Source of the DNA: Cyanidioschyzon merolae
Lineage: Eukaryota
Assembly (NCBI GenBank): GCA_000091205.1
Contig: AP006489.2
Reading direction: 5' to 3' (one strand)
Length of the DNA: 64,000 bases
Below are positions 701 through 55,535 of the stretch, in pieces (the stretch's first letter is position 1; every line of letters starts with the position of its first letter). The notes under the pieces are model-generated. The model saw only the letters and a program-made list of their open reading frames with translations. It made no database searches and was not told the DNA's origin. The position numbers and the translations under genes are program-made.

Positions 701-802
701 TGTTTATAGGGATCAAGTCTCTGAAGCGAGATGCTTTCACGACCTCTGCCGCTCCAGACGAGAGAAAAACAACGATAACTTCGGGGCCGGAGAAGTGTTG
801 AC

Positions 803-4376: not shown

Positions 4377-5146
4377 TTCCGAAACAACGTTTGTGTCCGC
4401 GCAGCCTAGTCGCCAGCACAGGTTGCAATGCACATTTCTCTACGTACCTGCGGCAGGTGGCGCTCGGACGACGGCGGGACGAGGCGGCGAGAATAGAGAC
4501 AAAGATGTCATCGCGATCTGCGTGGACATGAGCCGGCCCGCTCGCACTGGAGCAGTGAACTCTGCGGCAGCACTGGTGATGCCCACGAGGACGACCTGCC
4601 GGTGAAACGAACGATGTGAATGGCAGTACGCTGAATGCCTGCCAAACACATGGACGGCTTCGTGCGTATGTAAGCGCATATGCTGAGCAAACGTCGCTTC
4701 CTGTCCGGATATCGTCTTTTCGGACCCGTTTGAACATCCGGCTGTTCGGTGGACACAGGTTGCGGCGCGCTGTACCGCCGCTCAGACAGCCACGAACATC
4801 GCATCGTGCGTCATTGCAACGCTCGGGAGCAGCGTATCATAGCCGGTGCAGCACATGAGAGGATTCCCGCTCGATAATACCGCGCTTCGATACAGGAGCG
4901 CCTGCATCCGAACGCCAATCGATTCGGGGACGCTGCATTCACCGGCTTTGCCAGCATAGCAAAATGCTGTAATTCGCGAACATCCCCTACAGCGCCCGCT
5001 CTTACAACGCTTTTAGAGATTGCCACGCTGACGACATCGCCGGACAATGACGAACCTCGTTCAACGCGCCTGCCAGCATGGGGCGGCGGCGAGCGCGCAC
5101 GCCCCAACACGTTTCGCTAAGGGGGGGGTGCCTTAGGCAGGTCTTC

Positions 5147-22799: not shown

Positions 22800-23720
22800 T
22801 CAAAAGGCGAGCTCGAAACTCATGACCAACTACCTCCGCACTACGGTGAGGATGCTCTTCCGATGCAAATCAGCAGCAGTTTCTTATTCGAAGAGTTTTA
22901 GTCTAGGCTGCAGATTTGAACGGAACAGCCAGTGACCTGTTAGCGCTCTCAGCAGCACCCTGTATTCAACGCTACAACGCCGCTATGATTGCGCGATGCA
23001 AAGAACGAACCAAAGCACTTCAATGTGATCGTGCTCATGAAAAAATGCTTTGGCAGGGCGCCCTGCATCGGAACAGAAATCATTCTTTCTCTTTAATATA
23101 TAAAAGCGAGGCATGAAGAGGGCAACTACCAAGGTTTCACATGACGACATTGATGCTTTGTAACATTGAATACATTATAGAAAAACTTCTGCGCTTTTCA
23201 CACCGTTTGACTGATGATAAAAACATAATACGAGATATCTTTCACCGAAGAAGCCTTTGCAGATAGAAAACTCGCAGATAAACAAAATCGGAAGCCGGGT
23301 AACGATACAGCAAGCAGTAATATTCACTGTGCAATAACCGAGATTTTAAAATCACTAGTCCTTCGACACAGATCCCGACGGACTAGGCGTGACGGACTCA
23401 CACATCTCTGAATTTGAGTGGAAATTCGATCTGAGCGACAATTCTACATCAGCGACAATGCCGTCAGGACTACCAAAACCCCTCGTAGGCAAACTCAACC
23501 GCAAGTTTGAATTCGACAAGGTCCGCGCAATTTACCACAGCATGCAAGCCATTAAGGAAAGCTGGGCATTTACAAAGCAGGTCGCTTGTGATTTAATGAT
23601 ATAGGATTAAAACAGACCATCAAAAAACTTTTGTTACGAAAGCGGTAGCCCACTGAAGAAGTGAGTTACATCAGGGTGCATCCCGCTCCTCAGCTCGCGC
23701 GCTCTCGACGCAGAACACAC

Positions 23721-26700
23721 TCAGAAATATCACAAAAAATAGAACACGATTACCCTTCACCAACGACCCAGGAAAACCATTCCTAGTGTATCCATATGCC
23801 TCTCCAGCTTTCCCGGACTCTGAACCATGCCATGCAAGTGCCCTGCTCCAGGCGGGATTTCAGCGCCGCCCCTCTTGGCCACTGAATTGGGTCTATCGCA
23901 AGTCCTCGCCATTTCAGCACGATGCCCACAACGGGCACTGCAATACTCCCACCAAAGCTCGCTCGACACAAGCTCGCTGTACGCTCCAGGACCAGCAAAC
24001 ATTTCGGGTTGTTGATTGGCCCGTCCGGCTCGGCGGAGAACGTGCTTCCGTGCACTGTTGCTGGCGATATCACACTATGACGAGCTTCTCACTTTCGATT
24101 GCCTCGCAATGCGACGTTCGGTCAGCTTGCCGCCCAAGATCTCGTGGCATCCGACTCTGTTTCAATCTCGCCTTCTCCAGATGCTGCAGCCTACGCCTTC
24201 GCACGTGATGGATCTATGCCGTCCAAAGCGCATCGATGTAAATCGTACTAATCGGTTCCTGCACGCGTTGTACGCTCCCGTCGAAGGAGAGGGAGAGCAG
24301 CCCGCACGCGCCCCAGCACCTCCAGCGCCATAGACTAACACAAAACCACGCGACTTGTCGGCCATTTACTTTTCTAACTCACTGAACTAGTATATTCTCA
24401 CGATTCCTGCATATACAAATCGGTAGATGTTGGCGACCCCAGCGCTGTTTCAAGTACCCGGCCAATGTTCGTTCGTATACGACATTTGGACACTCAGGCA
24501 CTCTCTGAATCAAGCGCACGGGGGATCCGTTTCTGGTCAATCCGGCGCGCAGAACGTCGGGATGGGCCCTGAAGCCGTCATTCCGCGTGCCGGTACGCCT
24601 CGTTGAGTCGACCATGCCCGGCTCGCGATAATGCCGAGCCCCGGAGAAGCTGAGTTGCTCCATCTGATTGCCGCACAGCTGTTTGCATGCGTCCTTTCAA
24701 TTTAGGGGCACGGCGGAAGCTACGGCGTTCTTCATACAGGGATCCACGCCCGCCACAAAGACTGTCCCGTAAGCTACCATGCACGATTGAGAACGAGTCT
24801 TGTTGCTCGGCTCAGCTCAGGGTTTCACAACGTGCATGCAGCCTGGTATCCCGTAGGTCTCCGTCGCCCCTGTAAAATTCTTTCCATTTCCTCCCCGTAA
24901 CGAAGCAACCCTGAGGGAGCTCCGGCAATGCTCCATACGAAGCTGATCGAAAGCTTCGTAATTACCGGAAGAGAGGAGGCATAGCTCGCCGCGGAAACTA
25001 TCTAGTATGAAACGAATATGCCTACGGTAACATGGCAGGCCTTGATATGAAATATGGGAGTACTTCGAACGGACGCTTGAGGAGTCTTAGGCGCTCGCAC
25101 ACAGTGAGGGAGTTTGCGTTGCTATGGAGGGCTTCCTCGAAGAAAGCGCAGTAGCTCGTATGCAAGGAAGCTAGGCATCACATTTCAACCATCCCCTCTA
25201 TGGGTCGTGCGTCGGTCCGACCCCGCGAGCAATACGATGAGCCTGCGCCCCCACAGTCGGCTCTCGCGATCGTTGCGTTTTCCCTTCTGCGCTTGCTACG
25301 AACTCCATCTCGTCCGCCCAGAGCAGCTCGCCTTTTAACTATAAAGATACCGCTAGAAACTCATCCATCAGTCCCCTCTTTCCTGGGTCAGTGAATTGAG
25401 GGTACATCGCCCACAGGGTGCGGTTCATGAAGCGCTCGAGAGTGGCCGCATATTTTCTTCGGTTTTTGACGATAGTTTGATACTTTTTGGCACAGCGCGG
25501 TAGCTTTCTTTCGTTGCCCACATACAGCGACGACGCGTCAAAGCATTCTGCGATTCATGTGTGTAGCCGCTCGTCCTACAATCAGGCCGTGCTGCATATT
25601 GCGTTCAGAGCATCAGTTGCGCGTCGTCGCGCGAAGTCTTCATCGAGGAACTCCAGAAGAACGTGGACACCATGGAGTCCTATGTCGGAACTTCCGCAGA
25701 CCGTTGCTTGACCAGGCGGCTCAAGACGAGAGAGGCTAGGCGCGCATTATTCGGGTAAGGAGCTTCTCGAGCCTTCACGACGTCCCGGATTTCGCGTTTT
25801 GGAAGAGCCTCCCCGTTGAAGTGTGTTTGTCGGGAGACCTTGGCAACGGTTTCAGACTGATATTTCCGCTCCGACAGCTTTCCTTCCTGTACCACTTCGT
25901 CCCGTTTTCTGAAGGCTCTTCCGCTTCCTTGTCTGGTGGTCCCTCGCCCTTCTCCTTGACTTGGCGCGGCGGCAGAACTGTTGCCGCTATATTCCATATC
26001 CAGGTTTTTCGTCGGGATTCAGACAAACTAGGTGGATTCTAGCACTGCCATTCGCCCGCTCGATGGATCTATGTATCTAATTCGCTCCGAGTACACTTTC
26101 GTCAGTGCTTCCGTGGCAAGCACAAGCATGAGCCGAGGCGCACCTCCTCGCTCGCTCACACGAACCGCAAGAGATGCAACAAAGCAGTTCATGGCGAAGA
26201 AAACAAAGAGGGACTTGTCGAACAACGATCTCATGGGCGCGAGCCACTTCTCTATTGATCCGTGAGCGTAAGAATGGAATTTGGCACCGGAGAAGAAACA
26301 GTCGACTGGATTAAACCATGGAGAATGGGCTAGTGCGAAGAGCAGCTCCACGAAAATCACAGATGCGTACCCCTTGACCACCTTTGGGTTATGGAAATCG
26401 AGATCGTCTCAGAACAGGACAGAAAAATGTGGAAAGAAGGCACCACAAGTGCTTCGACGAAGAAAGAGCTTTTGAGTGATCCAGTCCATTTGGGGATATG
26501 TGGGCGATCGCACGACTGCATTTCCGCATGGGTTGGTGTTGTCGCCATTCTCGCTTGTCTCATTACTAGGAAGATGGTCCTCGCTGGGGGCGCGCTTTTT
26601 CGCTCGTCTATCCGAGTCTCTTCATAACCAACCGTATCAACGGCGCGTAAATTTCCCGTCCTGTGGCTTCATTGAAAGTTCTGCTCTGAACACATATGCA

Positions 26701-26981
26701 GCGGAAGGAATTGAGGAGAAAGTCGAGCAGATTAATTTCTATATCATCTGACTCGGGTGCACGGCGTTCAGGATAGGGGCTACGAGAAGGGTGGTTCATC
26801 CACCAGCTGACGGCAGGGCGACTTGCAGTATACATGTAGAGACATTTTGGCCAGCTTCCAGTACCACCACAAAGGCTATCCGCGAATTTTTTGCTCAGTT
26901 TAAGGGATACATCTTTGTGTTGAATTTCTGCGAAAAAATCAAAAAAATACAAAATGACGCGCTGGTGTAGGGGTGCAGGAT
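23721..26981. repeat. left arm of a 3261-bp inverted repeat (x maps to 56833-x)
   Basis: Every ORF in this arm has an identical-sequence partner on the opposite strand in 29852-33112. Nucleotide spot checks at 24301-24360 and at both boundaries are identical. Confidence 0.85.
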
Positions 26982-27335
26982 ATCAGTCCCTATTGAACAA
27001 TATGGTTTGCATCGGAATTGAACACGTTCATCAGAAAATCTGCGCGCTGCGCGCGGAAATATCGGCGCCGTTTTGGAATTTTTTGTCTGCATACCACTTT
27101 ATCACTCCATTCTGCTGTCGAGGAATTCTGGTTCGTCAGCTTGGCAGACTTTTCCCTTTATGCTTAGATCTGAAGCCGTTTTGCAAATTTTTGCTATTTT
27201 TAATTAATTTCGTTTCTTCTGTTTTGTGAAAGAGGGATAAAGGAGTGATTCTTCTGAACAAAGAGCTTGGGTAAACTATTTGGGACTGACGCAGGTTCGA
27301 AAAGTAGAAGTACGATCTCATCTGCGCGGCTCTGG

Positions 27336-27538
27336 GCACCCGAGTCAGATGATATAGAAATTAATCTGCTCGACTTTCTCCTCAATTCCTTCCGCTGCAT
27401 ATGTGTTCGGAGCAGAACTTTCAATGAAGCCACAGGACGGGAAATTTACGCGCCGTTGATACGGATGGTTATGAAGAGACTCGGATAGACGATCGAAAAA
27501 GCGCGCCCTCAGCGAGGACCATCTTCCTAGTACTGAGA
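27336..27538 (+). repeat. third copy (~97.5% identical) of a 203-bp segment of the inverted-repeat arms (matches 30073-30277 directly and 26556-26760 inverted)
   Basis: Nucleotide alignment shows 5 mismatches in 203 nt. ORF 27267-27488 repeats the peptide of ORFs 26608-26952 and 29821-30225. Confidence 0.7.
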
Positions 27539-27949
27539 CAAGCGAGAACGATCACAAAATCAGCCTTAGTGTTCTGAAAATACAGATACTAACCATCAAA
27601 TAGAAATTCGATATCAATTTTCTTCCTACTTTACGGTAACCATTGAAAGGGGAAAGCATTTGCTTATTCTCAAAAGTTCGGTTTCCAGGCTGAAAGTCGC
27701 ACGAGCCTTCCGAGCCTGCCAAGCTTTCGCTCCACATGCCTCTTTATAGCCTGGTGCTCTAGCAAGGCTTGAACAGCTCGTCCGCTGTGCGGGATAGTCT
27801 GGGACTTCGCGTGCTCAGGCTGTGTCTGGGACTCGCTCTCGTCGCGATGCTACTCTGACACATTGCTTCGCGCTTTTGCTTGCAGTGCGCCTGTCTGCGC
27901 GGATTGCAGGCTCTCAGCAATATAATGAATCCCGATCCCGAGTCGGCGA

Positions 27950-28120
27950 AAAACGCAGCGAGCTTACGTCTTCGGTGGTACGGCAAAGCCGTCCTGTCTG
28001 CGTGCTGCATTCGCACCTGCGGGATAGGCGCTAATGCTGGTGCCCACGATAGACTCGGCGCAAGATAGAACGTTCGAAACGACCAGTATGTCCGAGGGGA
28101 AGGATGGGTAATAGAACTTG
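27950..28120. repeat. left arm of a diverged (~80%) inverted repeat inside the spacer
   Basis: Reverse complement aligns with 28383-28553 (for example ctggtcgtttcgaacg / ctggtcgtttcgtacg). Symmetry centre 28251.5, distinct from the large repeat's centre at 28416.5. Confidence 0.6.
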
Positions 28121-28382
28121 AAGATAAGATTACGCATGACTGACGCTTTCCCGAATGCCAATATCGACCCCGCAGTCTGGGATCCATGGTCTACACAAAC
28201 GCTCTCTCTGACAAAAATGCACATTTTCCGCGCTCACGGGTCGCGTGCGATACTCTTTCGAATTTTTTTCATTGACAAAACGTTTACTTAGGCCAGCGTT
28301 CTCCGATTATGCGCATTTTTCTTTTCTTACTTTTTGTGTCTTTTTCAGTGCGCGGTGAAGTATCCATCAAACGCCCTACCTC

Positions 28383-28553
28383 CAAGATACATTACCTATG
28401 CTTCATCTCGGATATTCTGGTCGTTTCGTACGCCCTATCGTGTGCCGAGCGTGCCGAAAGCGACAGCAGTAGCGCCTATAGCGCCAGTGCGGTCGCTGCA
28501 CGGAGACAGAACGGCGTTGCCGTACCGCAGAGGGCGTCGGCTCGAGGGATACT
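28383..28553. repeat. right arm of the diverged spacer inverted repeat
   Basis: See left arm. Overlapping ORFs 27759-28187 (-) and 28334-28684 (+) share WSFRT...DRTALPY peptides. Confidence 0.6.
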
Positions 28554-28598
28554 CTTTCGATGTGACACGCTTTCGACGCGGCTACAGCGCTGCCGCAA

Positions 28599-29660
28599 GT
28601 GATGTCGCTGACCTTGTTTCCAGAGGGTATACACCCACGGATTCCTGTGGAACCTCAGGACCTTGTATGCTTGCAGTGTCCTGAAGCTAACCTTGGCCGG
28701 TCGCTGCTTTATTCTCTTGCTGAACGGGCAGCCCTTTTCAGCTCGAACGGGTTGACGTACCACGTGTTCCTCATTGACGGCGACTGTCTCAGCGGCGTTG
28801 TCGGACAAGGCGAGTGTGCCAGAGAGGTACTATGGAAGACTTTGCTAGAAGCCAGAACAGAGGCGACTGTGGAGGAGCCTTTGGCCATAGATCGTGTTTC
28901 TATTGCAGTGTGCCACTCGTTTAAGGAAAGCCTTGCTTGTCTTCGAGGCATTCTGCATACTGTCGAGCAGTTGTCACGGGAATTTCCCGAAAACACGCGA
29001 ACGGTTCCTGAACGAAAGCTTTCACTTCGGACTACTGTATCGCCATTTCCGCATCATGTAAAAGCGAGTCAGAACTTCTCGCTTTTGTCGCTTCCGCATG
29101 AACGGCAAATTTCTCAGAACTTGGAAAGCTTTAATGAACCAAGCTCAACCTCTTTCAAAAGCTTTTCAGAGAGCGTTGCACTTACCGACAATTGCATAGT
29201 GAAAACACCGAGCACGCTGCCAGTATCGAATGTTCCTAGCCATGAATACGTGTTGATTCTTGTTGATGGTATCGGGAATTCTTCGGGTATGCTTGGAAGC
29301 GAATATTACAACACCTGCATCATTGATCTCAGAGAAGAGCTTCGTGATATTTTACGTCAGCTGCTCGCCAGTGCGTACGTTTCAATTGTTTTTCGCGATT
29401 CTCTTATGGGTACGAAAACTGAGAGCATTGCACGCGAGATTCCAATCGAGACAAGCGGGGCTGATGGAACGATAGAAAAAATGCTGCGCAATCTCCTGAC
29501 GAAATCAGTGTTGGTCGAACATTCTTCGATGCCGAACGAAACGTATAGATTATGCTTTCGACAATTCCATCCGTCTGGATCACTCCAGCTTGAGTGGGAA
29601 AGTTTTTTAGGCGAGCCTCTCCATCCCGCTTTTAAATGGCTTCGAAGCAAAGCAGCGTAA
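28599..29660 (+). CDS. hypothetical protein (353 aa) unique to the spacer between the large inverted-repeat arms
   Basis: Long ATG-initiated ORF with no recognisable domain. Confidence 0.35.
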   Translation: MMSLTLFPEGIHPRIPVEPQDLVCLQCPEANLGRSLLYSLAERAALFSSNGLTYHVFLIDGDCLSGVVGQGECAREVLWKTLLEARTEATVEEPLAIDRVSIAVCHSFKESLACLRGILHTVEQLSREFPENTRTVPERKLSLRTTVSPFPHHVKASQNFSLLSLPHERQISQNLESFNEPSSTSFKSFSESVALTDNCIVKTPSTLPVSNVPSHEYVLILVDGIGNSSGMLGSEYYNTCIIDLREELRDILRQLLASAYVSIVFRDSLMGTKTESIAREIPIETSGADGTIEKMLRNLLTKSVLVEHSSMPNETYRLCFRQFHPSGSLQLEWESFLGEPLHPAFKWLRSKAA

Positions 29661-29851
29661 GGAGCTGCGATTCCATGTGTGCGTGCTGATGCATGAATGA
29701 ATAGAGTTCCCTTTTTCCGATTTCTTCGGATATCACCTTCCGGATAGTGATGAAGCAATTTTTCGGCGAAAATGTTCGCTCATTTATAGCGCTGGTCTCA
29801 ACTGGATTAGTACCTACGGCTTGTCTGACTTTTCTTACGAAGTGCATTCAC

Positions 29852-32800
29852 ATCCTGCACCCCTACACCAGCGCGTCATTTTGTATTTTTTTGATTTTTT
29901 CGCAGAAATTCAACACAAAGATGTATCCCTTAAACTGAGCAAAAAATTCGCGGATAGCCTTTGTGGTGGTACTGGAAGCTGGCCAAAATGTCTCTACATG
30001 TATACTGCAAGTCGCCCTGCCGTCAGCTGGTGGATGAACCACCCTTCTCGTAGCCCCTATCCTGAACGCCGTGCACCCGAGTCAGATGATATAGAAATTA
30101 ATCTGCTCGACTTTCTCCTCAATTCCTTCCGCTGCATATGTGTTCAGAGCAGAACTTTCAATGAAGCCACAGGACGGGAAATTTACGCGCCGTTGATACG
30201 GTTGGTTATGAAGAGACTCGGATAGACGAGCGAAAAAGCGCGCCCCCAGCGAGGACCATCTTCCTAGTAATGAGACAAGCGAGAATGGCGACAACACCAA
30301 CCCATGCGGAAATGCAGTCGTGCGATCGCCCACATATCCCCAAATGGACTGGATCACTCAAAAGCTCTTTCTTCGTCGAAGCACTTGTGGTGCCTTCTTT
30401 CCACATTTTTCTGTCCTGTTCTGAGACGATCTCGATTTCCATAACCCAAAGGTGGTCAAGGGGTACGCATCTGTGATTTTCGTGGAGCTGCTCTTCGCAC
30501 TAGCCCATTCTCCATGGTTTAATCCAGTCGACTGTTTCTTCTCCGGTGCCAAATTCCATTCTTACGCTCACGGATCAATAGAGAAGTGGCTCGCGCCCAT
30601 GAGATCGTTGTTCGACAAGTCCCTCTTTGTTTTCTTCGCCATGAACTGCTTTGTTGCATCTCTTGCGGTTCGTGTGAGCGAGCGAGGAGGTGCGCCTCGG
30701 CTCATGCTTGTGCTTGCCACGGAAGCACTGACGAAAGTGTACTCGGAGCGAATTAGATACATAGATCCATCGAGCGGGCGAATGGCAGTGCTAGAATCCA
30801 CCTAGTTTGTCTGAATCCCGACGAAAAACCTGGATATGGAATATAGCGGCAACAGTTCTGCCGCCGCGCCAAGTCAAGGAGAAGGGCGAGGGACCACCAG
30901 ACAAGGAAGCGGAAGAGCCTTCAGAAAACGGGACGAAGTGGTACAGGAAGGAAAGCTGTCGGAGCGGAAATATCAGTCTGAAACCGTTGCCAAGGTCTCC
31001 CGACAAACACACTTCAACGGGGAGGCTCTTCCAAAACGCGAAATCCGGGACGTCGTGAAGGCTCGAGAAGCTCCTTACCCGAATAATGCGCGCCTAGCCT
31101 CTCTCGTCTTGAGCCGCCTGGTCAAGCAACGGTCTGCGGAAGTTCCGACATAGGACTCCATGGTGTCCACGTTCTTCTGGAGTTCCTCGATGAAGACTTC
31201 GCGCGACGACGCGCAACTGATGCTCTGAACGCAATATGCAGCACGGCCTGATTGTAGGACGAGCGGCTACACACATGAATCGCAGAATGCTTTGACGCGT
31301 CGTCGCTGTATGTGGGCAACGAAAGAAAGCTACCGCGCTGTGCCAAAAAGTATCAAACTATCGTCAAAAACCGAAGAAAATATGCGGCCACTCTCGAGCG
31401 CTTCATGAACCGCACCCTGTGGGCGATGTACCCTCAATTCACTGACCCAGGAAAGAGGGGACTGATGGATGAGTTTCTAGCGGTATCTTTATAGTTAAAA
31501 GGCGAGCTGCTCTGGGCGGACGAGATGGAGTTCGTAGCAAGCGCAGAAGGGAAAACGCAACGATCGCGAGAGCCGACTGTGGGGGCGCAGGCTCATCGTA
31601 TTGCTCGCGGGGTCGGACCGACGCACGACCCATAGAGGGGATGGTTGAAATGTGATGCCTAGCTTCCTTGCATACGAGCTACTGCGCTTTCTTCGAGGAA
31701 GCCCTCCATAGCAACGCAAACTCCCTCACTGTGTGCGAGCGCCTAAGACTCCTCAAGCGTCCGTTCGAAGTACTCCCATATTTCATATCAAGGCCTGCCA
31801 TGTTACCGTAGGCATATTCGTTTCATACTAGATAGTTTCCGCGGCGAGCTATGCCTCCTCTCTTCCGGTAATTACGAAGCTTTCGATCAGCTTCGTATGG
31901 AGCATTGCCGGAGCTCCCTCAGGGTTGCTTCGTTACGGGGAGGAAATGGAAAGAATTTTACAGGGGCGACGGAGACCTACGGGATACCAGGCTGCATGCA
32001 CGTTGTGAAACCCTGAGCTGAGCCGAGCAACAAGACTCGTTCTCAATCGTGCATGGTAGCTTACGGGACAGTCTTTGTGGCGGGCGTGGATCCCTGTATG
32101 AAGAACGCCGTAGCTTCCGCCGTGCCCCTAAATTGAAAGGACGCATGCAAACAGCTGTGCGGCAATCAGATGGAGCAACTCAGCTTCTCCGGGGCTCGGC
32201 ATTATCGCGAGCCGGGCATGGTCGACTCAACGAGGCGTACCGGCACGCGGAATGACGGCTTCAGGGCCCATCCCGACGTTCTGCGCGCCGGATTGACCAG
32301 AAACGGATCCCCCGTGCGCTTGATTCAGAGAGTGCCTGAGTGTCCAAATGTCGTATACGAACGAACATTGGCCGGGTACTTGAAACAGCGCTGGGGTCGC
32401 CAACATCTACCGATTTGTATATGCAGGAATCGTGAGAATATACTAGTTCAGTGAGTTAGAAAAGTAAATGGCCGACAAGTCGCGTGGTTTTGTGTTAGTC
32501 TATGGCGCTGGAGGTGCTGGGGCGCGTGCGGGCTGCTCTCCCTCTCCTTCGACGGGAGCGTACAACGCGTGCAGGAACCGATTAGTACGATTTACATCGA
32601 TGCGCTTTGGACGGCATAGATCCATCACGTGCGAAGGCGTAGGCTGCAGCATCTGGAGAAGGCGAGATTGAAACAGAGTCGGATGCCACGAGATCTTGGG
32701 CGGCAAGCTGACCGAACGTCGCATTGCGAGGCAATCGAAAGTGAGAAGCTCGTCATAGTGTGATATCGCCAGCAACAGTGCACGGAAGCACGTTCTCCGC

Positions 32801-33112
32801 CGAGCCGGACGGGCCAATCAACAACCCGAAATGTTTGCTGGTCCTGGAGCGTACAGCGAGCTTGTGTCGAGCGAGCTTTGGTGGGAGTATTGCAGTGCCC
32901 GTTGTGGGCATCGTGCTGAAATGGCGAGGACTTGCGATAGACCCAATTCAGTGGCCAAGAGGGGCGGCGCTGAAATCCCGCCTGGAGCAGGGCACTTGCA
33001 TGGCATGGTTCAGAGTCCGGGAAAGCTGGAGAGGCATATGGATACACTAGGAATGGTTTTCCTGGGTCGTTGGTGAAGGGTAATCGTGTTCTATTTTTTG
33101 TGATATTTCTGA
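29852..33112. repeat. right arm of the 3261-bp inverted repeat
   Basis: Reverse complement of 23721-26981. Outer boundary tcagaaatatcac; inner boundary gggtgcaggat. Confidence 0.85.
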
Positions 33113-34618
33113 TTGTATTATATTTCAACCAGGCGCTTGCGACTCGACAACTTACATAATCCTTTCGGTTCCCTGATAATGATTTAGAAAAAAATTTTTT
33201 GAGCCTTTTTGCAGCCCAGAAGATCGAAAAAGTGCTGCGTGCTCCAATCCACGGGATTCGTCCGAGCCTGGCAGAAGCATTGAACGGTATGAAACTTGCT
33301 CGCTTATCAGTAAAAACTTCTATACGGTCTCTCTGGGTGTGAGGAATTTTTTCTTTTGTTCGTTAGTGTGATGCTTTGCATGGTGTTTCGCCTTCAGCAC
33401 TTGGGAAGTGAGCTATGGTCGGGAACAGCGTTCGCAGCATCAGAATGAAACCGCGAATTCATTTAGTAATATTCTCTGCCACGTAGCTGTTCGTCAGGCG
33501 TTGCGAAAATAGGTCACCGGTGGAATTTGTGAATGTTGCATTTTCCGAGATGATTTTAGTCGCCGAATACAGCAGCCACTTGAAGACCTCATGACCCAAG
33601 GGTGTTAGAATCGATATCTTCAAGCAAGAAATTTACGCGCATGGTTTTTGCAGCGACTCTGTCTGCGTTTACCTTCCTGGTCGGATATTCCCGCTGGGAC
33701 TCTATCTATCATGAAGTGGTGCCTCTTGCATATTCTCAAGCCAAAGGGAAGGGGAGCATGTGAATAGTGGTGGTGCTTGGAATATGTTCAAGATTTCATC
33801 AGGTATTTTCCAGTGAACCCAGGTCACAGGGCCCACTATCTCATTTGCATACGGCCAGTTATCCTGGAAACACTCCGCCGCAGTTTCAATTTACAGGGTC
33901 CATGATTTGATCTATAGACTGCGAAAGCTCTGTGGCAACTTAAGCGAAGCACAACAAAACTCGGGAACCTAGTTATCGCTTATCTAATGAATTGACCACG
34001 ACGCGTCGCATGGACATCAAAGTTTGTTGCCTTCTGCAAAATGGAGCACTTGCTAAAGAGCTCCTGCAGCAATTGATACTCGGAAAGGTGAACAAAAACG
34101 CTGTGCGCTCCGCGCATCATAACTCGAGTTGCTAGGAAATGCGCATCTCAGCTGTTTACAATAGCATCACCGTATAGTTCGCTGAATCTATATTTCACTC
34201 ATCTTGGGATGAGAACAGCAGCCCCTTTCCTCAATTGTCGAGAGGCTAGGTCGGCAGATGTCGCCTGACAATTTCAAAATTACATGGTCTCAGAAATGAA
34301 CTGATATACCTTCCAGCAGTGCAACAGAGCCTTATCGGAGACTTCAAATCAAAGCGCACGCACAAGTGTGAGCACCTCTGCTTGGGTGCTCAGCTCGACA
34401 GGGCACCTTTGCGGTAGAGAGAGACTCAGCGCTGGCTGCAGTAAGAGCGAAAGCGTTCGGGATATATTACAGAACAAGACCTTCGCCCGGGCCTTCCGAT
34501 TTATTGCAAAGAAGATGGTCATGTTTTCGGGCTTACAACCATGTGCTGATTTCATTTGCAATTCAAAATCGTTGCACATGAAGAAGAGAGGTAAATGCGT
34601 TCATAAAGTTGATATCCA

Positions 34619-35902: not shown

Positions 35903-38480
35903 ATTACGAAGTACTCGGTGCGAGTTCGATTTCGCGCCCGCTCTGATGCGATTTTGCGGATGTTGTTCAGAGGCATCATTTCCGACCCGATTCTGCACAA
36001 GTCGCTTTACGAAATTCCCGGCAGAAAACTCGCATACGTCCCATCCAAAATGACAGATTATGTCGAGTTTGATCATGCAGACTCGTCGGTAAGCTGTTCC
36101 TACGTTTACGAGAAGGCACTTCAATCCGTGTCGCCAAACCTCTGCTGGCATGCCTGACCGCTTTAGACGAGAGATCGAACCAACTCTAGTGCTAGCTTAT
36201 ATGTATACTTGCCGATTCAACTGCTTCTTCTGCAGTTTCTGCTTCCGCTTTATTGACTCGCTGTTTAGATAGGCACCATATCTAGGCCGAAGCGAACATA
36301 CTCCTCCGAACAGCGTTCAGTAAACTTTTGATACCCTGTACAGCATGTTTCCGGCCTGGGCGTATGCAATTGCTCGTTGTTTTGCGATTTCGGCACCGGA
36401 ACAAGAACGACCCTGAAGTTGTCACTTCATCTAGGTTCTACTCGTGCGGGTTCGTTACAGAGCCAAACAGGCCATTCCCCAATATTCATAAGCACGAAAG
36501 CTGCATCAATCAAGCAACTGTTCCATCAGAATGGTCCCAGATTACCACACGCACGGAGCATGCGGAAACGCTGCACTCTCGGAAGTGACATGCGCTCAAA
36601 CCATGGCCAGAGCACTAAGCGGAGTGCCGCGCCTCAGATACGGGAGCACAGGACACTTCGGGCGTTTTACAGCAATCAAGGCCTGCGCCTATCGGGCAAC
36701 CCTAATAGCCTCGAGAGCATAAAGCAATATATAGCGAATACAAACACATGGTTCGCCTCTTCAACGTGCGAGTACGGAGACTTTCTGAATAGGTACTGCG
36801 TTCAAGGGAACCTAGATATGGTGAGCGCCGTGCGAGGTGACATGTTTCGCTGCGGTTTCCAGTGTTGCCCGCTGGAGACCTCGTCCCGTGTTCACAGTAT
36901 GCACGTCGTCTAACTCAACAGTTCGTTTCGCACACAAGTCATTGCAAGGCCGCTGAAGAAGGTCTCTGTCCGCCGGCGAACCACCTGTTCACAATTACTT
37001 CTCGGCACCTACGTGGGACTCAACGTTGCGGGTTCTTTCGCTTTCCAGATGCAAGCCATTAGTTCTTGCCTCTTGCCCGTAAACGGGTTGCAGACTGTCA
37101 GGACGCTCTGCCGATAGCTCGCCCACTGACACTCACGTCAGACTCAAAAGTGGTCCCCTAACTCGAGCTTCCACAAAAAAGTTTGAGTCTCTTCAAACTG
37201 ACAACAGCAGATTTGCGGACTTTTCCTGTTACTGATTCCTTTCGATCTCTTGTATCCGAATTTCGATACCTCAGTCTCTCCTTTCTCTCCACAACCATTG
37301 CCATCAGTCGCAGGTTGTTGGTGGTAGCAATAAGTCCCTATTTCGTTATGTGTGGCTGCAGGTGATACGCTTTTGAGCACAAGCGACAAGTGCTATCAAC
37401 ACTGCGCTTTCGATTCGCATCTGATCTATGCACAGCCTCATTGTCGCCTCTTGCAACAATGGCACCCGACTGCAGTCAGGCGTTCCCATGTGCGATCACA
37501 CTTCCTCCGGACGCCGCTCTATCGCCCGTGAAAACTAGCTTCATCGCTCGGACTAAACCGTTGGTGGATATCGAGGTTCCCCTCGATGCCGTCCATCATT
37601 TTCGCGTCCAGTGCCGTACCCTACGACCATGGGCTTCTTTGCGATCTTCTCGTCGAATACTCTGTCGGCTCCAGAAACATGAGCACGCTGTTTTATTGGA
37701 TGGAGGATTTTGGAACGCGACGTTTTACATGATGAAAGGAGTACTCGAAGGGATGTACAGACTCAAGAACACGTCGAGAAATTTCGATCCGTCCATGCTC
37801 CCGTCTTGCAAATGGTGATGAACTTTCCACTGGACATGATCTCCAAGATCACTGAAGTCCGAGTTCAAAAAACTTTTTGAATTAAACAATAGAGAAGGGA
37901 ACTCTGGGAGCGTACCCAGTGAAAGCTACTACGTTCCTGTCGAACGCCATTACGTAGCTGGCCACAAAGACACGTGTGTTGAGATTTCGAGGGGAGGCGG
38001 TAATTTTTCGTTACAATTTCAGAGCGCTTTCGGCAGGAGCCCATGAAGAAGTCGCCAAGGGAATACGTCCAGTTATTTTCCTCGTCAATCAAATAGCACG
38101 AATTGCAGTGCGCACGAGTTGAAATGATTCTGAAAGATCGAAAACTTGAAGAACTCTTGAGATGAGCGCAACCCATTTATGCAAACAAGAAGAATGGAGG
38201 CTCTCGTATATAAATTCGATAATGGTATCGGTTATTCTAAGAAGCCGTATTCGAGGAAGTCGAGAATCATCTTGATTCCGGCGATCTGGCGAATTCCTGC
38301 GGCAAAGGCTGGAAGGAAGCACCCCACAAAGACTCCCGAGAATCTTTGACTGCATATATATCCATACGCTCTTAGGGCTGCACATCAGACGCTGATGTCG
38401 TCCAACTAAAAAATTGGAAAAATCTACGGGCCGGGACACACAGAGCGATTCAGTGTTCCACTGAAATCTGAGACGGAGCT

Positions 38481-42553: not shown

Positions 42554-43718
42554 ATATTTACATTTATGTATATTTCTTAGACTTCAGGACTGTCTGGCGA
42601 GCACCGTGGGGCGAAAACGCTGCACGCCCATGGGATAAATTGATATAGACGTGCAAACGCCTCCCGGCTGCCTTCGACCAGCACTCTGCAATGAGCTCCA
42701 GATTCTCCGTGTAAACCTCGAACCTGAGAGGCTGCTCTACAAAGTTAGATCGCGTCAGCTCTCATGATCTCGTCTTCAGCACTGGGCATATCCTAAAAAA
42801 GCTGGCAGCGTTAAAGTATCGGTTCAGGAACTGAAAGCGTTTGTTGCTTCTGGTGGTACGCACCAATGCATCGATTCCTCGAACTCGAGCGCTCTGTCCG
42901 AGTACAATCTCCTCTAGGCAGACTTTCGTTCTTCTTCCTCGTCTTCGTCACTTGCTCTTATTTGCTCGACGATCACCGAGAAGAGGCTTTTTTCCGTTTT
43001 TTCTATGGCACTCGGCTATAACCGCCGTCCAGGTTCCGCGATTTATAGGTCCATATCTTTCCCTTGGATTTTTCATTTCTTCAAATGAAAGAACTTCGGA
43101 GACGTCTGCTATGCACCGCGACAAAACAATTGATTAAACGCATCTCGGGGTGAAACACAATTGACGTAAAAGACTGCAAAATGCGTGAAAAACTGCCAGA
43201 GGATGCGAAATTGACGCTCGAACGCTGCCATCAGCGTCCTTTGAGAGGTGACTACAGAATTGGAAGGAAAGGGAAAACCGTCGTATTGAACGCGGGCGAT
43301 ACGCTAGCAGAAAAGGAAAGCATCAGAAAAATCCCGGAGAGGCTGATGTAGACTACAGAGGGAAGAGACCCAAACTTTAGTACTTGCCTAAGATATGTTG
43401 TTGGACCTGTTCTACATTATACTCACGTGGATGTAGAAAAGCCACGGAAATAGTGTTTATCTGTCGTGAGCAAGTGCGCCTCGGCCGTTTTGCTGTGCAG
43501 CGCAATGCTCGCAAGCTAAGAAGGTCGGGAGCACGCATTTACACGGTTGTACAAGAGTTATGTCGCATCCAGGGGCCTGAGCAGTGCACTACAACGGGCG
43601 AGTGGGCAACTTTTTCTGATGCCACAGCGCCGTAAGGTTCATAGAGCGCTTTGGTGCAAGACCTCTGCAGATGAAGCTCACAGCCGCGCATACGAGAGAT
43701 TTTCTTCAGTGCTGATCA

Positions 43719-48478: not shown

Positions 48479-48978
48479 ATGAAGCGCGCAGGACGTCATT
48501 TTCCTTCAGTCGATGAGACTTCCTTCGTACGAAACGGTCGATGCCTATATGGGTATTCGTGGAGAGGGAGCTCGATTTACGTACGATCGAGCTCGAAGAG
48601 AAAGAACTCAGCATCTGCTCAAGCTGCAGTGGACTATTCGGCGGCCTCCTTTTTGCTCGTAGGTATTGGCATGTAAGTCGAGGATCCTGGAGGCTCGTCA
48701 TCACCGGCTGAAGAAATAAAACGAAAAAATCCTCTTCTTGCCCACCGTCGCGCGAAGAAGTGCAAGCGGAGAAGAAGAAGAGTGGATATAGGCCGGAAAA
48801 TGCTTTTGCCTGTCAAGACGATGACGAGACTGTTTTGTTAGAGAGGGTGCGAGTTCTGAGAATCTTTGCACAGATGAGTTCATCCAGCGGCAATAAATGC
48901 AAGGTGTTCATGAACCGAGACCTAAACGCCGCCATCAATATCAGACAATGTGTGCTGCTGAAGACGAGACTCGAGTAG
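48479..48978 (+). pseudogene. diverged TnpB/Fanzor-like copy D (3' part). Exon-like blocks at 48479-48673 and ~48712-48978, with a putative intron starting at GTAAGT (48674).
   Basis: Frame 48712-48978 encodes ...REEVQAEKKKSGYRPE...RVRVLRIFAQMSSSSGNKCKVFMNRDLNAAINIRQC, which aligns with copy A (EMEKCQGSPE...KVRGLLAFVSTTNDGKKRMEFVNRDFNAGINIRRC). Upstream block MKRAGRHFPSVDETSF aligns with CARRFATIPVDEFRTSY of copy C. ORF 48760 starts with GTG, not ATG. Confidence 0.45.
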
Positions 48979-51900
48979 CTGGTGGAATCTAACTTTGTGC
49001 TCAAGCCTTTCAGGCTCGAAGAATTTAGGGAAAAACTAATGCTGGCAGAAAGCGTCCTGTCAAAAAAGCTGGGAAGCGCCAGTGGGTGAGTGTATATTCA
49101 CCCTACATGATCAGGGACATTTTCTGCATCACAAACAACGTATGTTGAAGCGGTCGGTATACTCAGAGCCATGATTTCTGGAACACCTTAACACACATGC
49201 TATGTTAGTTTTGCTTGTTTTCTCACGGCCGGTCGGCTCCAGGAATGTAGTCTTTCCATTAGAGAAAACCTGCGGAGAGAATTCGTGCTGTCTCTGCTAA
49301 CTTGGGCAAAATGGCTTACATCTACAAGTGAGTCACTCTACAGCCTCCAGACGAATTAACCACCCATATAGCAGTCCTTATCCTAAACAACGCTCGCCCA
49401 AAACAGATTGCATGAAACTCCTTCTGCACGACTCTCTCATAATCATTCCACCCCATCCCATATGATCTCCTAGCAATGCTACAAAAGCAGCCAAAAATGT
49501 GGAAGGTTTCAGTATCGTTGGTTCTATCGGAGTTGAACAGATTCGGAATGATAAACGGAAAGACGCGCTCAAAACGGAGAGCTTCGAGCTCCGAATAACA
49601 AGCACTACCGACTTTGTATTTAAACGCAAACAACAACTATAGTTGCCACGAATGTTCGTCTCCCTCGAAGAGAATTCATTCGCGAGAATAGTAATACTTC
49701 TATTTGGGTGCTCAGAGAGGGCAAACCTCTGTCTTTAACGCATCGACACGGGAGCATGACGAATATATCAACCAAAGCCGCAATGTGGTCGTGTGGTCAC
49801 CTACAGATCGCCAAACGGACATGATCGTTCAGTCCCTAGCCCTTCCTCGAGACACATTTCATGGCTTCTCTTTCGCACATTCTTGTCGTCTGCTCCGAGC
49901 CAATGTCGCTTTTCCTCATGTAACAGCTGTAAAGGAGTACCCAGCTCAGATCGACTTTGAGCTGCGTTTTATACGGACCTATTCTCCCCGGTCCGATCCA
50001 GACCATGCCGTCTTCTCTACTCTTAAATGCCATATCCATGCTCAAAAATGACAAGCGGACTCATTTGCATCCATGGAACCGATATATGAAGGACGCCGTC
50101 ATGCATCGTATGGCACCTCTTCGGTGGAAAGCTCGCTCAGCATCTGCTGCATTTACGCTCCGCGCCAGTCCTTCTTCGTCGGGGTTCTGGACGCAAAGCG
50201 TTTACGTGTCCACATTCGCCTGAAAATTTTTAATCAAAACTTCGATCGACAAATGATGCTCTAGACATAAGAGACAACACAACGAAGTAGTAGGATAAGG
50301 GCTTTGGATACATGCATCTTAGGATACTTAACACGTCGCCGCGCCAGGTCTGCGATCGGAATATCTACAGCGATGGTATCAAAACGTGGCAAACCACTCT
50401 CACATACCGAGACCGTATCCGCGTCGGTCTCGAGCTGTTCATGAAGCGCACCGTGTAGCCGTTCTAGCCTCACCTAGCAGGCCGAGACACGGAGGGATCA
50501 GCGGAAGGGATCCTTGTGTGTCGATAAAGGCAATCGACGTGCTGGTCCTGGCAGTGGAGGTCGAGATGGCAAGGTGTCGGAAGAGGATGTTGCACAGAGT
50601 GCGACAGTCGCATCCGATCGTCCGAGCTCACCGTGTTGTTCTCCACCACAGAAATATGCACGTCGTATTCAAAGAGTTTTCAGCACCTTGATGCACCCCC
50701 CTTTGCAACTTCCGGCCCGACGTTTTCCCCGAACAGAGCCTTCCGGAGCAGATCAGGTTCTCTTTCCGAATGCGAGCTATATCGCGTATCCAAGCTTCTA
50801 TTAGATAAGCCTCTCGTGTGTCAAATCAAGACTCGCCTTATCAGCGTAGACGCTTCCGCCCCGAGCGACATTCTCAGCGAAGTGTGGCTGGTTTCTGCGG
50901 GCAAGTGTGGAGAATACGAACACTTTCGCTAAGAGAATAGAGGGTTCGCTCATGTTTTCTGGTTTCCAGACGGGAATGGAGACAATACTAACACAAACAA
51001 TGTATACTTTCGGAATATCAAACTGCACGTACTTCGTGGGACCTATGTCTGAAACAGTCTGCGAGAATCTTTCTGACCCGTTCAGGATAATTGATGAGAA
51101 GAGTGGACAGTGTGTTTGCATCTCAGGCATAAGAGCACGAACGGCCTCACAGTACCTCTGAAGGAAGATAGCGAAGCCAAAGTTCTGAACGGATAGCAGA
51201 TAAAAGTTTCTGGCTGTTCCTGGGCTCGGGATCATAGAGTCTGTGGTGTTTCGGAGCGGAGGAGCCATACAACCAAAAGTAATGACAGCGTCAGGACCCA
51301 GCTCGACGCTCAAGAACACTGTATTGACCTGTGGAAGCCTTGCACGATTTATTCAGAGAGTAAACGATCGCTCAAGTTCCTAATGCGTACGATCCTTGAC
51401 AGAAATAAATAAAACAATGTTGGGGTCAACGTCCGCTTCCATTGCACCGACGGAGGAAGCGTCCATATACCCATTAGTTCAGTCAGTTTGAAAACGGAAA
51501 GAACCGAGAAGTCGCTTCATCTGGTGGTAGGCGATGGCGCTGAATATGCTCTGGTGCGCAAAGCCTGCATTCTGGCTCCTGAAACTAGAGCATTCAGTAA
51601 GTGCAGGAACCAAGTCTGTGCGATTCCCGTCGATTATAGAAGGATGACAAACACGCCTTACGAGCGAGATTGCATGCCGAAACTGGAAGGCGAGTTCAAC
51701 ATGAAACAGAGGCGTTTGTATACGATGGTCTACAGGAGGCTGATCGAACATCAGACTGCGAGGAAATCGAGAATGAGGAACCTGCTTTTTGATGATTCCA
51801 GCAGCAACAATGCGTACCAGCACATTCTGCAGCGAGCATTGATCGCCTAGATCATTTTCCGGAAATTTCTCCTGCTTCCCGGGCGTTCAGTGGCCTTGTA

Positions 51901-53498
51901 TCGAGCGAACTTTCGAACGATTCGATTAGTACTCAGAGTGAGCATTCCGCTGGAATGTGGAAGACATTAGATCAAGAAGTTCAATAGCAAGGAGAGTGGA
52001 AATTTGATGCTCGCCCATGTGAAGGCACAGGTATGGTACGGTACAACAATCTAGCCAGGCTTGGGCGCCAAGCACGAGCGACGGAAACGGCTTTTCCTAG
52101 CAATTGATAGAATATAATGGTGTTCTGTTCTTAAATAATACTGAATATTGCATAAACAAGTGCAAAAATATCGAACGCATGCATCTATGCAGCCATGGCA
52201 CACGATTCGCTGCGAGGCCGGCTGCGGTGCCTCTCGTGAATGGTAAAGGGTCGCTGAATGTAAACCAGGATCTGCAAGTCTTTTTGGTGCGCTTGATCGT
52301 CTAAACCACCGGGGGATCAGCAATTTCGAGAGCGATATCGGCTTCCGAGAAGGCGTCCATTTTTCTGTATCAAAACTCCAAAGTCTACCAGCTACCGCCT
52401 TAGCTTCTCATTCGAGACATTAGTCTGTTCGCGGCATCATCCGAGTACAAAGTCCTCCAAGAGCGTCCACTGTTACCGTCTACATGGCCGCGCTACCGAT
52501 CACGCCCGAAGAGAGGACTGCTTTGCCATACGCTTGTCGGCCTGGGGCTTAAGCTCTCGAATACGTCGTAATATTTTCCAGCAAGCTCACGTTGCAGTGC
52601 ACAGAGACCGCCTCGCATGAACCACTTTTGTACGTTGAATCGAGGGTCTTGACTAGTGTCGACCGTATTACAGCTGTTTGCGGATCATGGAATGTTACCT
52701 ATTTTGACCTCGAGGTGACTATTTGTGGCAACACCGGTGTCTAGGCATGCGGTAGCGCTCCTCGGGCCGTAGGACGCTTTTACCCTATCTTGTGTTTCGC
52801 TTCCATGTCCCATAATGTATAGGCAGAAGCGTTGAACGTTTCACACAGAATACGCAGCCATGCAACGTGTGAAAATTGGAGTCGACTCCTAAGCGTATTG
52901 CAGTAGCATGAAGAAACAACAGAAGCTCATGTTAGTTATCTCATTCGAGATAAAGACGGGTTACTGGATTTTGCAGTCATGTAGTTCGCGAAGAGGCTTC
53001 AGGATCCTTTTTAAAAGGGACAAGGCACATGCCTCGTCTTGAAATACTGGTTCATGTCCACAACGCGTTTGTCGGCCAACGACCATTTATTATGTGTTTG
53101 ATCCTCGAAGCGAAACCAATACTGGACTCTGCATAGTCAATGGCAAAGCATTCGCTCTAGTGTCAGATTTCGGTATGAGTAAATCTTTTGCTCCAGGGAC
53201 CGAAGATACGGTTCCGCACCACATCCCGATACGCTGGTGTAGTGGCCACCTTAAGGGACCACGTGCAATGGTGTGTCCATTGCAGACGTAAAACCTAGAA
53301 TCTCAGGGACTCGCTCGCGGAGCCGTGCTCCCGCAGTGCATCGTGCAATGTCATGTTGGTCGAAGACAGTATTTTCTGTCTCTCCAATGCTGCTCGAGAA
53401 ATGAAACCCATCCCTTCTTCGCATGAAGTGCATGTGTGTTGGGTTCTCAGTGAGGTAGGCATTCATCAAGAACCCCCAGCTGATCTAATAAGGAACAC

Positions 53499-55310: not shown

Positions 55311-55356
55311 CACCAACGACAAAGTCCTTACCCTGCACCTCCTGCATCGCAGGATC

Positions 55357-55477
55357 CGCACTCTTCTCATCTACATGTTTCGCCTAGCCGTCTACAAGGT
55401 TGTACTTCTCCAACTCCTGCGTCGCAGGATCCGCATCCTTCTCATCTACATCCTTCGCCACGGGCGAAGCCGAGGAC
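55357..55477 (+). repeat. two 46-bp near-identical direct repeats (period 75 bp) at the centre of the palindrome loop
   Basis: ctcctgcatcgcaggatccgcactcttctcatctacatgtttcgcc (55357-55402) and ctcctgcgtcgcaggatccgcatccttctcatctacatccttcgcc (55432-55477). Confidence 0.8.
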
Positions 55478-55535
55478 GGACCAGGAGGCGGGCCCGACAG
55501 CGCTGGAGGTGCAGAAGAACGATTTCTCGTTGGCG

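Follow-up and report, generated by a model that had tools for sequence, protein, structure and literature searches.

Two related mobile elements of the red alga Cyanidioschyzon merolae are the closest described systems for the locus considered here. CMe-1A is a Fanzor1-bearing element with a 3169-bp consensus and about 150 copies, which lacks terminal inverted repeats (TIRs) and whose target-site duplications (TSDs) are given as undetermined, and TE-N2_CMe is a 635-bp non-autonomous element of about 70 copies that corresponds to the 5′ 635 bp of CMe-1A (Bao & Jurka 2013, Mob DNA 4:12). In our searches, the CMe-1 protein had no match among PDB sequences and matched Pfam PF07282 below threshold (E 0.52), on the stretch NRDFNAAINI, such that its Fanzor label rests on the literature (PMC3627910). 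This Fanzor-type family, CMe-1A/TE-N2, has thus already been described in Cyanidioschyzon, and the nested palindrome that we analyse is explained and fairly ordinary: its spacer has very probably been colonised repeatedly by this one TIR-less, unclassified superfamily, around a conserved orphan gene. Since the palindrome amounts to three insertion layers of a known superfamily around a normal gene, no special mechanism is needed.

The window, by which we mean the whole 64-kb stretch of DNA that was analysed, is nuclear DNA of a Cyanidioschyzon-like red alga. Its flanking genes are eukaryotic, and its Cox11 is 74% identical to Cyanidiococcus Cox11; a bacterial origin was ruled out by the eukaryotic neighbouring genes and by the lack of an E. 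coli match. The large inverted repeat consists of two arms of 3268 nt each (23714-26981 and 29852-33119) and a spacer at 26982-29851, with its symmetry centre at 28416.5. Between the arms there are only 2 mismatches, at 23716 and 23720, both within the outermost 7 nt. A search for tRNA genes and for Rfam families at gathering threshold found none, and relaxing the threshold to E ≤ 1 gave a single 21-bit snoRNA-like match, in the arms.

Within the spacer lies the orphan gene, a conserved, single-copy gene of 352 aa on the plus strand (28602-29660) with coding-like codon usage. Pfam and PDB searches with it gave no match, its AlphaFold model from a single sequence was unusable (pLDDT 33), and an exhaustive HMMER search of 1.84 billion representatives yielded no more than 2 clusters. 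Syntenic orthologues exist between Mito_carr and ANTH in Cyanidiococcus and in GCA_041825655.1, with 27-29% identity (E 1e-25 to 2e-27). In both relatives the order is Mito_carr on the minus strand, a 347-355-aa gene on the plus strand and ANTH on the plus strand, within 4.7-5.4 kb; the interval from Mito_carr to ANTH measures 11.8 kb in the window and 5.3 kb once the arms are subtracted. The corresponding loci of the two relatives contain no CMe-1A-like or arm-like DNA. Judged from this synteny, the spacer is in all likelihood the original chromosomal segment, that is, the conserved orphan gene and its upstream region, with the gene at its ancestral position and in its ancestral orientation.

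The arms are two whole copies, arranged head-to-head, of a dead and diverged Fanzor1-type element that flank the orphan gene. The left arm carries the element on the minus strand and the right arm carries it on the plus strand, such that both 5′ ends (26981 and 29852) face the spacer. With nhmmer, the arms match positions 1403-3001 of the CMe-1A consensus (E 1e-15). In a tblastn search with the CMe-1 protein they match aa 142-634, with 22% identity over 526 aa (E 1e-14), and a second match in a different frame covers aa 509-650; recognisable protein blocks include LERFM..YP and G.DP. The ORF remnant lies at 31267-32746 on the plus strand of the right arm and, in mirror image, at 24087-25566 on the minus strand of the left arm. 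It has 9 in-frame stops in 478 codons as well as a frameshift, and the Fanzor1/TnpB motif D-x(125,275)-[TS][TS]-x-x-C4 zinc finger-x(5,50)-RD is not intact in it: G.DP is retained, and the DEF..TS site has decayed to MRF..RS. Stops, frameshift and degraded motif together mark it as a pseudogene. The codon usage of the arms is non-coding, and a six-frame Pfam scan of them returned no domain. Furthermore, the arm shows no TE-N2-like similarity over its first ~600 nt, and the lack of a TE-N2 module at this 5′ end makes the arms a related but distinct lineage rather than CMe-1A proper. Better-preserved members of the CMe-1 family are present in the window at 2-683 and at 54336-56510, with 82-85% aa identity.

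The ends of the arm element are defined by a third, diverged copy on the plus strand at 49165-52146. It matches the arms in colinear nhmmer tiles (E down to 1e-30) and is 56.7% identical to them over 2810 aligned columns, as compared to 38% for the flanks; the mismatches show no periodicity and most indels measure 1-2 nt. Both arm ends match the ends of this paralogue, within about 11 nt each. The arms themselves show no TIR, LTR or TSD and no terminal or internal inverted or direct repeats, and the outer flanks of the large inverted repeat have nothing in common, with no TSD around the whole unit. From the match between the ends of the repeat and those of the element, transposition is the putative origin of the second arm.

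That such identical 3.27-kb arms are typical of assembly artefacts, such as those that chimeric long reads or collapsed repeats produce, is the point in favour of regarding the palindrome as one, but this is scarcely credible for an asymmetric 2.87-kb spacer that holds a real gene. More importantly, independent short-read metagenome contigs from JGI and ENA carry all four junctions, from flank to arm and from arm to spacer on both sides, which bears out the conclusion of the earlier note against a simple artefact. These contigs comprise left flank plus arm (L004, L005), spacer plus left arm (L027), spacer plus right arm plus right flank (L013, L019) and arm plus right flank (L015, L016), and further contigs break off after the first 127 nt of the repeat, as they would at a true repeat edge. 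Contig L018 has an A18 junction at 32487, a candidate polyadenylation site. The three contigs returned by one metagenome scan all came from this locus.

The same contigs bear on the identity of the arms. Relative to the window, the same 4-5 arm SNPs are found in contigs anchored in the left flank and in those anchored in the right flank or spacer, at 24339, 25071, 26030 and 26096 and in some contigs also at 26687, though De Bruijn short-read assemblies collapse identical arms, which limits how such shared SNPs can be read. In some strains, the 213-nt unit described below has spacer alleles that move towards those of the arms; conversely, one site in the arms adopts the allele of that unit. As far as contig SNPs can tell, these patterns indicate gene conversion among the arms and the 213-nt copies. 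The arms would thus be kept identical through sequence exchange, in which the 213-nt fragment may occasionally join. Such recombination could also invert either the 2.87-kb spacer or a 575-nt piece, the one that separates the left-arm copy of the 213-nt unit from the spacer copy; in one contig (L026), this 575-nt segment is seen inverted.

The 213-nt unit, which we call U, is present in the spacer at 27336-27548 on the plus strand as an isolated third copy of an arm segment. It differs at 5 positions from the arm copies (97.7% identity), U′ at 26548-26760 on the minus strand of the left arm, to which it is inverted, and U″ at 30073-30285 on the plus strand of the right arm, to which it is direct. 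An earlier note on this DNA had placed the spacer copy at 27336-27538 with 97.5% identity, which is essentially right though slightly short, and its orientation, like that of the right-arm copy, had been read correctly. The note had also suggested that this 203-bp unit is a small MITE-like element that was captured in the arms as well. The sharply bounded patch of 97.7% identity, with flanks lacking similarity, fits an autonomous small element that inserted once into the spacer and that the arm-forming sequence captured as well. Weak similarity detected by nhmmer does extend to 27329-27569. Against this reading, the flanks of U show no arm-like sequence, TIR or TSD, and the TSDs looked for around 27336-27538 were not found. 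Moreover, the paralogue at 49.2-52.1 kb contains a U-like segment (49394-49590, E 1.8e-8) at the same internal, colinear position, element positions about 222-434, where U′ lies at 222-434. U is therefore integral to the 3.27-kb element, and its spacer copy is an isolated fragment. The three near-identical copies and the diverged one are also the only copies in the window, with none in the fetched loci, and several short-read contigs pass straight through U, which a high-copy repeat would prevent. An independent MITE-like unit is hence very improbable, and the spacer U is an internal piece of the arm element, stranded on its own.

The second repeat within the spacer is a small inverted repeat of 168 nt (27959-28126 and 28377-28544), which aligns ungapped with 74.4% identity around a centre at 28251.5. 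Its alignment score of 121 compares to 19 ± 2.4 for shuffled sequences; like the U repeat, it is far above chance. The repeat of ~170-bp arms given in the earlier note is thus real and has the centre given there, but its coordinates are those above and its identity is 74% instead of ~80%. It does not extend outward, nor is there a mirrored pseudo-copy of the orphan gene. Protein coding was rejected on the basis of the mismatches, which are spread as 16/14/13 over the three codon positions, and a two-sequence alifold gave no decisive sign of a structured RNA.

Each arm of the small repeat lies within a TE-N2-like element. Copy A (27577-28221, minus strand) is a full-length TE-N2_CMe-like element that contains the left arm and matches positions 5-636 of the CMe-1A consensus over 27577-28208 (73.9% identity, nhmmer E 1.8e-97); its 5′ terminus was set by alignment with copy B and with contig L026. 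Copy B (28262-28569, plus strand) is a 5′ fragment, TE-N2/CMe-1A-like, that contains the right arm and matches consensus positions 4-274 over 28273-28569 (70% identity, nhmmer E 3e-34). Its 5′ terminus at 28262 coincides with the break in contig L017, and it ends 33 nt upstream of the ATG of the orphan gene. No TIRs were found at the ends of either copy and no TSD at copy A. Besides the two copies, the TE-N2-like unit is represented in the window by about two diverged pieces, and the TE-N2 core motif had zero matches in the prokaryotic genome contigs and viral contigs scanned. The notion of a small mobile unit thus survives in that the ~170-nt part belongs to a short non-autonomous TE-N2_CMe-like element, but at 635 bp and without TIRs this is no classical MITE.

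That three head-to-head pairs occur in one window invites the question whether the small and the large inverted repeat both derive from local inverted duplication, by fold-back or template switching, rather than from separate insertions. The arms lack TSDs, and the pair at 54336-56510 shares one common truncation point and for this reason clearly arose by local inverted duplication. For the two repeats of the spacer locus, though, such an origin is improbable. In a further comparison, copy A is 78.6% and copy B 71.4% identical to the CMe-1A consensus, whereas they are only 62.8% identical to each other and have 5′ segments of different subfamilies. Since each is nearer to the C. merolae consensus than to the other, independent insertions are called for. 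The large repeat, in turn, is bounded by the element's own termini, which is unexpected for a random segmental duplication. By comparison with the consensus, then, the ~170-nt inverted repeat represents two independent TE-N2-like insertions, head-to-head and 40 nt apart, one complete and one a 5′ fragment; the older inverted repeat postulated previously is accordingly not an old duplication. The more general claim, that nested repeats of unequal divergence reflect successive insertion events, is borne out.

A 13-mer, GATACTCTTTCGA, occurs in two exact copies only in the window, both on the plus strand: at 28249-28261, where it adjoins copy B at its 5′ end, and at 28548-28560, inside copy B at a family-variable site. 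This is the motif said earlier to recur at 28247 and 28543; it does recur, but at 28249 and 28548, and near chance level. A spacer of 2870 nt should contain about 0.06 such exact direct pairs of 13-mers by chance, which makes the pair marginal on its own. It does not sit at both ends of the copy B homology, and comparison with CMe-1A does not explain it. We considered copy B as a SINE or retroposon with an A8 'tail' and a 13-nt TSD; this was rejected, as TE-N2 family elements have the T-run for their 5′ terminus and the second 13-mer is internal to the element.

Could the inverted repeat be a functional module, either a cassette whose inversion switches the orphan gene or, as in some yeasts, a small centromere built of inverted repeats? 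Its identical arms, maintained by gene conversion, would suit such a role, and no other gene-poor stretch in the window is as large as this region, whose intergenic parts have 41-47% GC; C. merolae centromeres are 2-3 kb lower-GC stretches for which no further pattern is known (bioRxiv 10.1101/096016), which counts for the centromere version. However, the arms are dead transposon copies, the same molecule carries a third copy at a distance of 16 kb, and the conserved gene of the core has kept its ancestral orientation, with the repeat absent from relatives. A functional module is therefore very doubtful.

It is conceivable, albeit unlikely, that head-to-head pairing is itself a footprint of the movement or repair of TIR-less Fanzor1 elements. 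The window contains three such pairs, namely the arms, copies A and B, whose 5′ ends are separated by 40 nt, and a near-perfect palindrome (54336-56510). A possible route would be a nuclease-induced break at an element end followed by fold-back or template-switching repair. If this were true, identical arms would also make the gene cassette, and likewise the 575-nt sub-segment, flip-flop in natural populations.

Repeated colonisation by the CMe-1A/TE-N2_CMe superfamily, the reading that we favour, would make the repeats decaying mobile-element DNA, with copy B now directly upstream of the orphan-gene start codon. Its practical value is in annotation, where it accounts for a puzzling nested palindrome within an algal genome that is very compact. 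Beyond this, it points to a second, strongly diverged CMe-1-type (Fanzor1) lineage in this alga, whose ends are now definable, and to dead 3.27-kb copies whose identity is apparently maintained through gene conversion in hot-spring populations in the wild. Sharp termini and inverted pairings such as these could also help in classifying the family.

How does the locus compare with known systems? The arms resemble CMe-1A in length (3268 vs 3169 nt), in lacking TIRs or detectable TSDs, in the place and orientation of the ORF and in their colinear nucleotide and protein similarity, and the two hosts are close relatives; they differ in their low aa identity, in a different 5′ portion of ~600 nt, in the destroyed ORF and in being two identical copies inverted around a host gene. 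Relative to TE-N2_CMe, copy A (645 nt) corresponds to positions 5-636 and copy B to the first 274 positions, both without TIRs, but the copies belong to a different species, are ~26-30% diverged from the consensus, come in two 5′ subfamily variants and have a terminus that apparently lies ~10 nt beyond the published consensus start. Like MITEs, the TE-N2-like unit is a short, non-coding, non-autonomous derivative of a larger element; unlike them, neither it nor the 213-nt unit, an internal fragment, was found with TIRs or TSDs. A gene bracketed by two inverted copies of one element recalls a composite transposon, yet here the gene is at its ancestral syntenic site, no TSD surrounds the unit, the elements are dead and there is no sign of movement. 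With gene-converting palindromes, such as those of the human Y chromosome and plastid inverted repeats, the locus shares kilobase-scale identical arms, strain differences common to both arms and residual mismatches at the extreme edge of homology, whereas its arms are dead transposon copies rather than gene-bearing amplicons and its spacer flip-flop is putative.

The two arms of the large inverted repeat (left, 23714-26981, minus strand; right, 29852-33119, plus strand) differ at only two positions, both within the outermost 7 nt. The earlier note had placed a third, nearly identical copy of an arm segment in the spacer (26982-29851), at 27336-27538; this copy is real and slightly longer (27336-27548, 213 nt, 5 mismatches), matching 26548-26760 in the left arm and 30073-30285 in the right arm, whose orientation it shares. 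The proposed second inverted repeat likewise exists, with its centre at 28251.5, but its identity is 74.4% rather than ~80% and its arms lie at 27959-28126 and 28377-28544; the 168-nt alignment is ungapped and scores 121, as compared to 19 ± 2.4 for shuffled controls. The recurring short motif is present as two copies of a 13-mer, though at 28249 and 28548 instead of 28247 and 28543, and chance alone would give ~0.06 such pairs in a sequence as long as the spacer. The suggestion that successive insertions lie behind these nested repeats has been borne out: the 13-mer pair aside, they are copies and fragments of transposons of one superfamily, members of which inserted several times around a conserved gene.

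That the inverted-repeat structure is not a simple artefact, as the note had also argued, is seen from independent JGI and ENA short-read contigs, which carry all expected junctions. L004 and L005 contain the left flank and the entire arm and end exactly at 26981, L027 joins the spacer to the left arm, L013 and L019 each hold spacer, right arm and right flank in one contig, and L015 and L016, with arm and right flank, begin exactly at 29852. L003 and L009 break off 127 nt into the perfect repeat, and three further contigs do so 109-207 nt into it; de Bruijn assemblies break off in this manner at the edge of a true repeat. The independent contigs exclude a palindrome created by assembly, a reading to which we attach virtually no probability.

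A search of E. coli genomes with the 64-kb window gave no match and its genes are eukaryotic, such that a bacterial origin was rejected. These genes are intron-less, lie on both strands and include a mitochondrial carrier, Cox11, ANTH, ABC1 and DUF760. The Cox11 protein has 100% identity only in hot-spring metagenomes, and is 74% identical to that of its nearest named relative, the red alga Cyanidiococcus yangmingshanensis, and 53% to that of Cyanidium caldarium. Gene set and Cox11 identities together identify the organism as a Cyanidioschyzon-like cyanidiophyte with a compact genome.

The spacer holds a real, ancestral gene (28602-29660, plus strand), an ORF of 352 aa with coding-like codon usage. 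In both relatives, Cyanidiococcus and assembly GCA_041825655.1, a syntenic orthologue (347 and 355 aa, respectively) lies in identical orientation between the mitochondrial carrier (minus strand) and ANTH (plus strand). These orthologues are 27-29% identical to it, as compared to 60-74% for the neighbouring genes; its product has no relatives in Pfam or PDB, and a search of 1.84 billion representatives gave only two clusters. It is a fast-evolving orphan, restricted to Cyanidioschyzon-like algae. Carrier and ANTH stand 11.8 kb apart in the window, as against 4.7-5.4 kb in the relatives; without the two arms 5.3 kb remain, so the locus itself is ordinary and the arms around it are additions specific to this lineage. 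The orthologous intervals of the relatives contain no CMe-1A- or TE-N2-like and no arm-like elements.

CMe-1A of C. merolae has been described as a 3169-bp element with ~150 copies, one 734-aa Fanzor1 ORF and undetermined target-site duplications; TE-N2_CMe (635 bp, ~70 copies) corresponds to its first 635 bp, and both are without terminal inverted repeats and unclassified (Bao & Jurka 2013, PMC3627910). The window was compared with the consensus from Additional file 2 of that paper. Copy A aligns along consensus positions 5-636 (28208-27577, minus strand; 73.9% identity, E 1.8e-97) and is a complete TE-N2-like element; copy B aligns along positions 4-274 (28273-28569, plus strand; 70% identity, E 3e-34) and is a 5′ fragment. 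The two arms of the small inverted repeat fall inside these copies. Copy B ends 33 nt before the ATG of the spacer gene, and some of the sequence upstream of the gene thus stems from a transposon. Over ~290 shared positions, copies A and B match the C. merolae consensus at 78.6% and 71.4% identity, respectively, but each other at only 62.8%, and their first ~110 nt are different variants. This star-like pattern shows that they are two family members inserted separately, and not an old duplication; their 5′ termini (28221 and 28262) stand head-to-head, 40 nt apart.

The arms match CMe-1A consensus positions 1403-3001 (E 1e-15), and the CMe-1 protein aligns with them from aa 142 to 634 (E 1e-14, 22% identity), on a sense strand that points the 5′ ends of both arms at the spacer. 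Their Fanzor-like ORF carries nine stops and a frameshift, with the blocks LERFM..YP and G.DP still recognisable. A pair of 242-aa ORFs in a second palindrome (54.3-56.5 kb) has protein similarity to the arms, and its motifs suggest a TnpB/Fanzor-type protein, a lead with which the published account of CMe-1A agreed.

Two further JGI contigs leave the locus at the end of, or within, these elements. L017, colinear with 28262-32816, is joined at 28262 to its own positions 1-4455, so that beyond the exact 5′ terminus of copy B lies a locus with Rbx1/ANAPC11 and mitochondrial PheRS, unrelated to this one; the contig is chimeric at a T8 run, or else a rearrangement took place at the end of the element. 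L018 tracks spacer and right arm to 32487, past which (junction at L018:4540-4570) it continues into A18 and, on the other strand, a 449-aa ORF that is unrelated and rich in repeats; this junction looks like a poly(A) tail within the dead Fanzor ORF.

The arms, the 213-nt unit and the small repeat all lack terminal inverted repeats, long terminal repeats and target-site duplications; no tRNA or Rfam family was detected, a six-frame scan gave no Pfam domain, and the mismatches of the small repeat show no codon periodicity. With BLAST neither the window nor the relatives yielded additional copies; nhmmer picked up diverged versions of the 213-nt unit (49394-49590) and of the small-repeat unit (near 52300-52560). 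Tiling of the locus revealed a third copy of the entire arm at 49165-52146 (plus strand), colinear with the arm at 56.7% identity over 2810 aligned columns (flanks 38%), its ends coinciding with both arm ends to ~11 nt. It lies in a second gene-poor stretch, with a TE-N2-like 5′ fragment downstream (52302-52546, plus strand). The arm is accordingly an element in its own right, 3.27 kb long, of which the 213-nt unit makes up internal positions 222-434; apart from the stranded copy of that unit, the spacer contains no arm-like sequence. The idea that this unit is a MITE captured by the arms is contradicted by the paralogue, in which the unit is internal too, and by the lack of terminal inverted repeats and of target-site duplications, which were looked for around the spacer copy; we consider it highly improbable.

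The second arm would have arisen through transposition, because the duplicated unit is the element itself, a match that random segmental duplication does not predict. Purely local duplication does hold for the palindrome at 54336-56510, both halves of which are truncated at one and the same point. For copies A and B, however, the comparison with the consensus contradicts it, as does the agreement of repeat ends with element ends for the arms, and it is unlikely as a general origin of the inverted repeats. The halves of that palindrome (54336-55385, minus strand; 55438-56510, plus strand) are 99% identical, 5′-truncated CMe-1A copies (consensus ~2100-3169), each with an open 242-aa C-terminal Fanzor1 ORF 82% identical to CMe-1, around a central 52-nt tandem repeat (55333-55384 and 55408-55459); the shared truncation point indicates a local inverted duplication. 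Further CMe-1A pieces lie at 2-683, 42642-43184 (minus strand), 48662-49089 (plus strand) and 62775-62946 (minus strand), comprising one 3′ end that is truncated where the window stops (85% aa), two internally deleted copies (consensus ~780-1060 joined to ~2835-3095) and one weak TE-N2 fragment. An inverted pair of ~1.1-kb segments (61355-62447 and 8431-7345, ~65% identity) has no match to the CMe-1A consensus, except weakly nearby, and a ~160-nt dispersed repeat (38214-38374, 62305-62441 and L017:4135-4295, ~70% identity) is possibly another small element family.

Environmental contigs differ from the window in the arms at 24339, 25071, 26030, 26096 and sometimes 26687, and the set is identical whether a contig is anchored in the left flank or in spacer or right flank; both arms therefore changed together, with the caveat that short-read assemblies collapse identical arms. 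In some strains the spacer unit has arm alleles at 27409, 27465 and 27493, and in others the arm has the spacer-copy allele at 26687. The only mismatches between the arms are located at the extreme margin of the homology, out of reach of conversion tracts. We infer that gene conversion homogenises the arms, and the same recombination could flip the spacer. Contig L026 (OGCG01019353.1) comes from a strain that has diverged further (97% in the spacer, 99.8% in the arm part). Here the 575 nt separating the left-arm 213-nt unit from the spacer unit are inverted, and copy A is a mosaic of A and B variants, with 424 nt of unrelated sequence (62% GC) directly adjoining its 5′ end; flip and mosaic reflect genuine recombination or, alternatively, an ambiguous path through the assembly graph.

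Nothing points to a function of the repeats. That they form a functional switch or an inverted-repeat centromere is a reading that has nothing positive in its favour and seems very improbable; C. merolae centromeres are known merely as 2-3 kb stretches of lower GC (bioRxiv 10.1101/096016). The element family, its lack of terminal inverted repeats and target-site duplications and its short derivative have been published (Bao & Jurka 2013); what is new is that a related alga has a diverged lineage of arms, arranged as an apparently gene-converting inverted pair.
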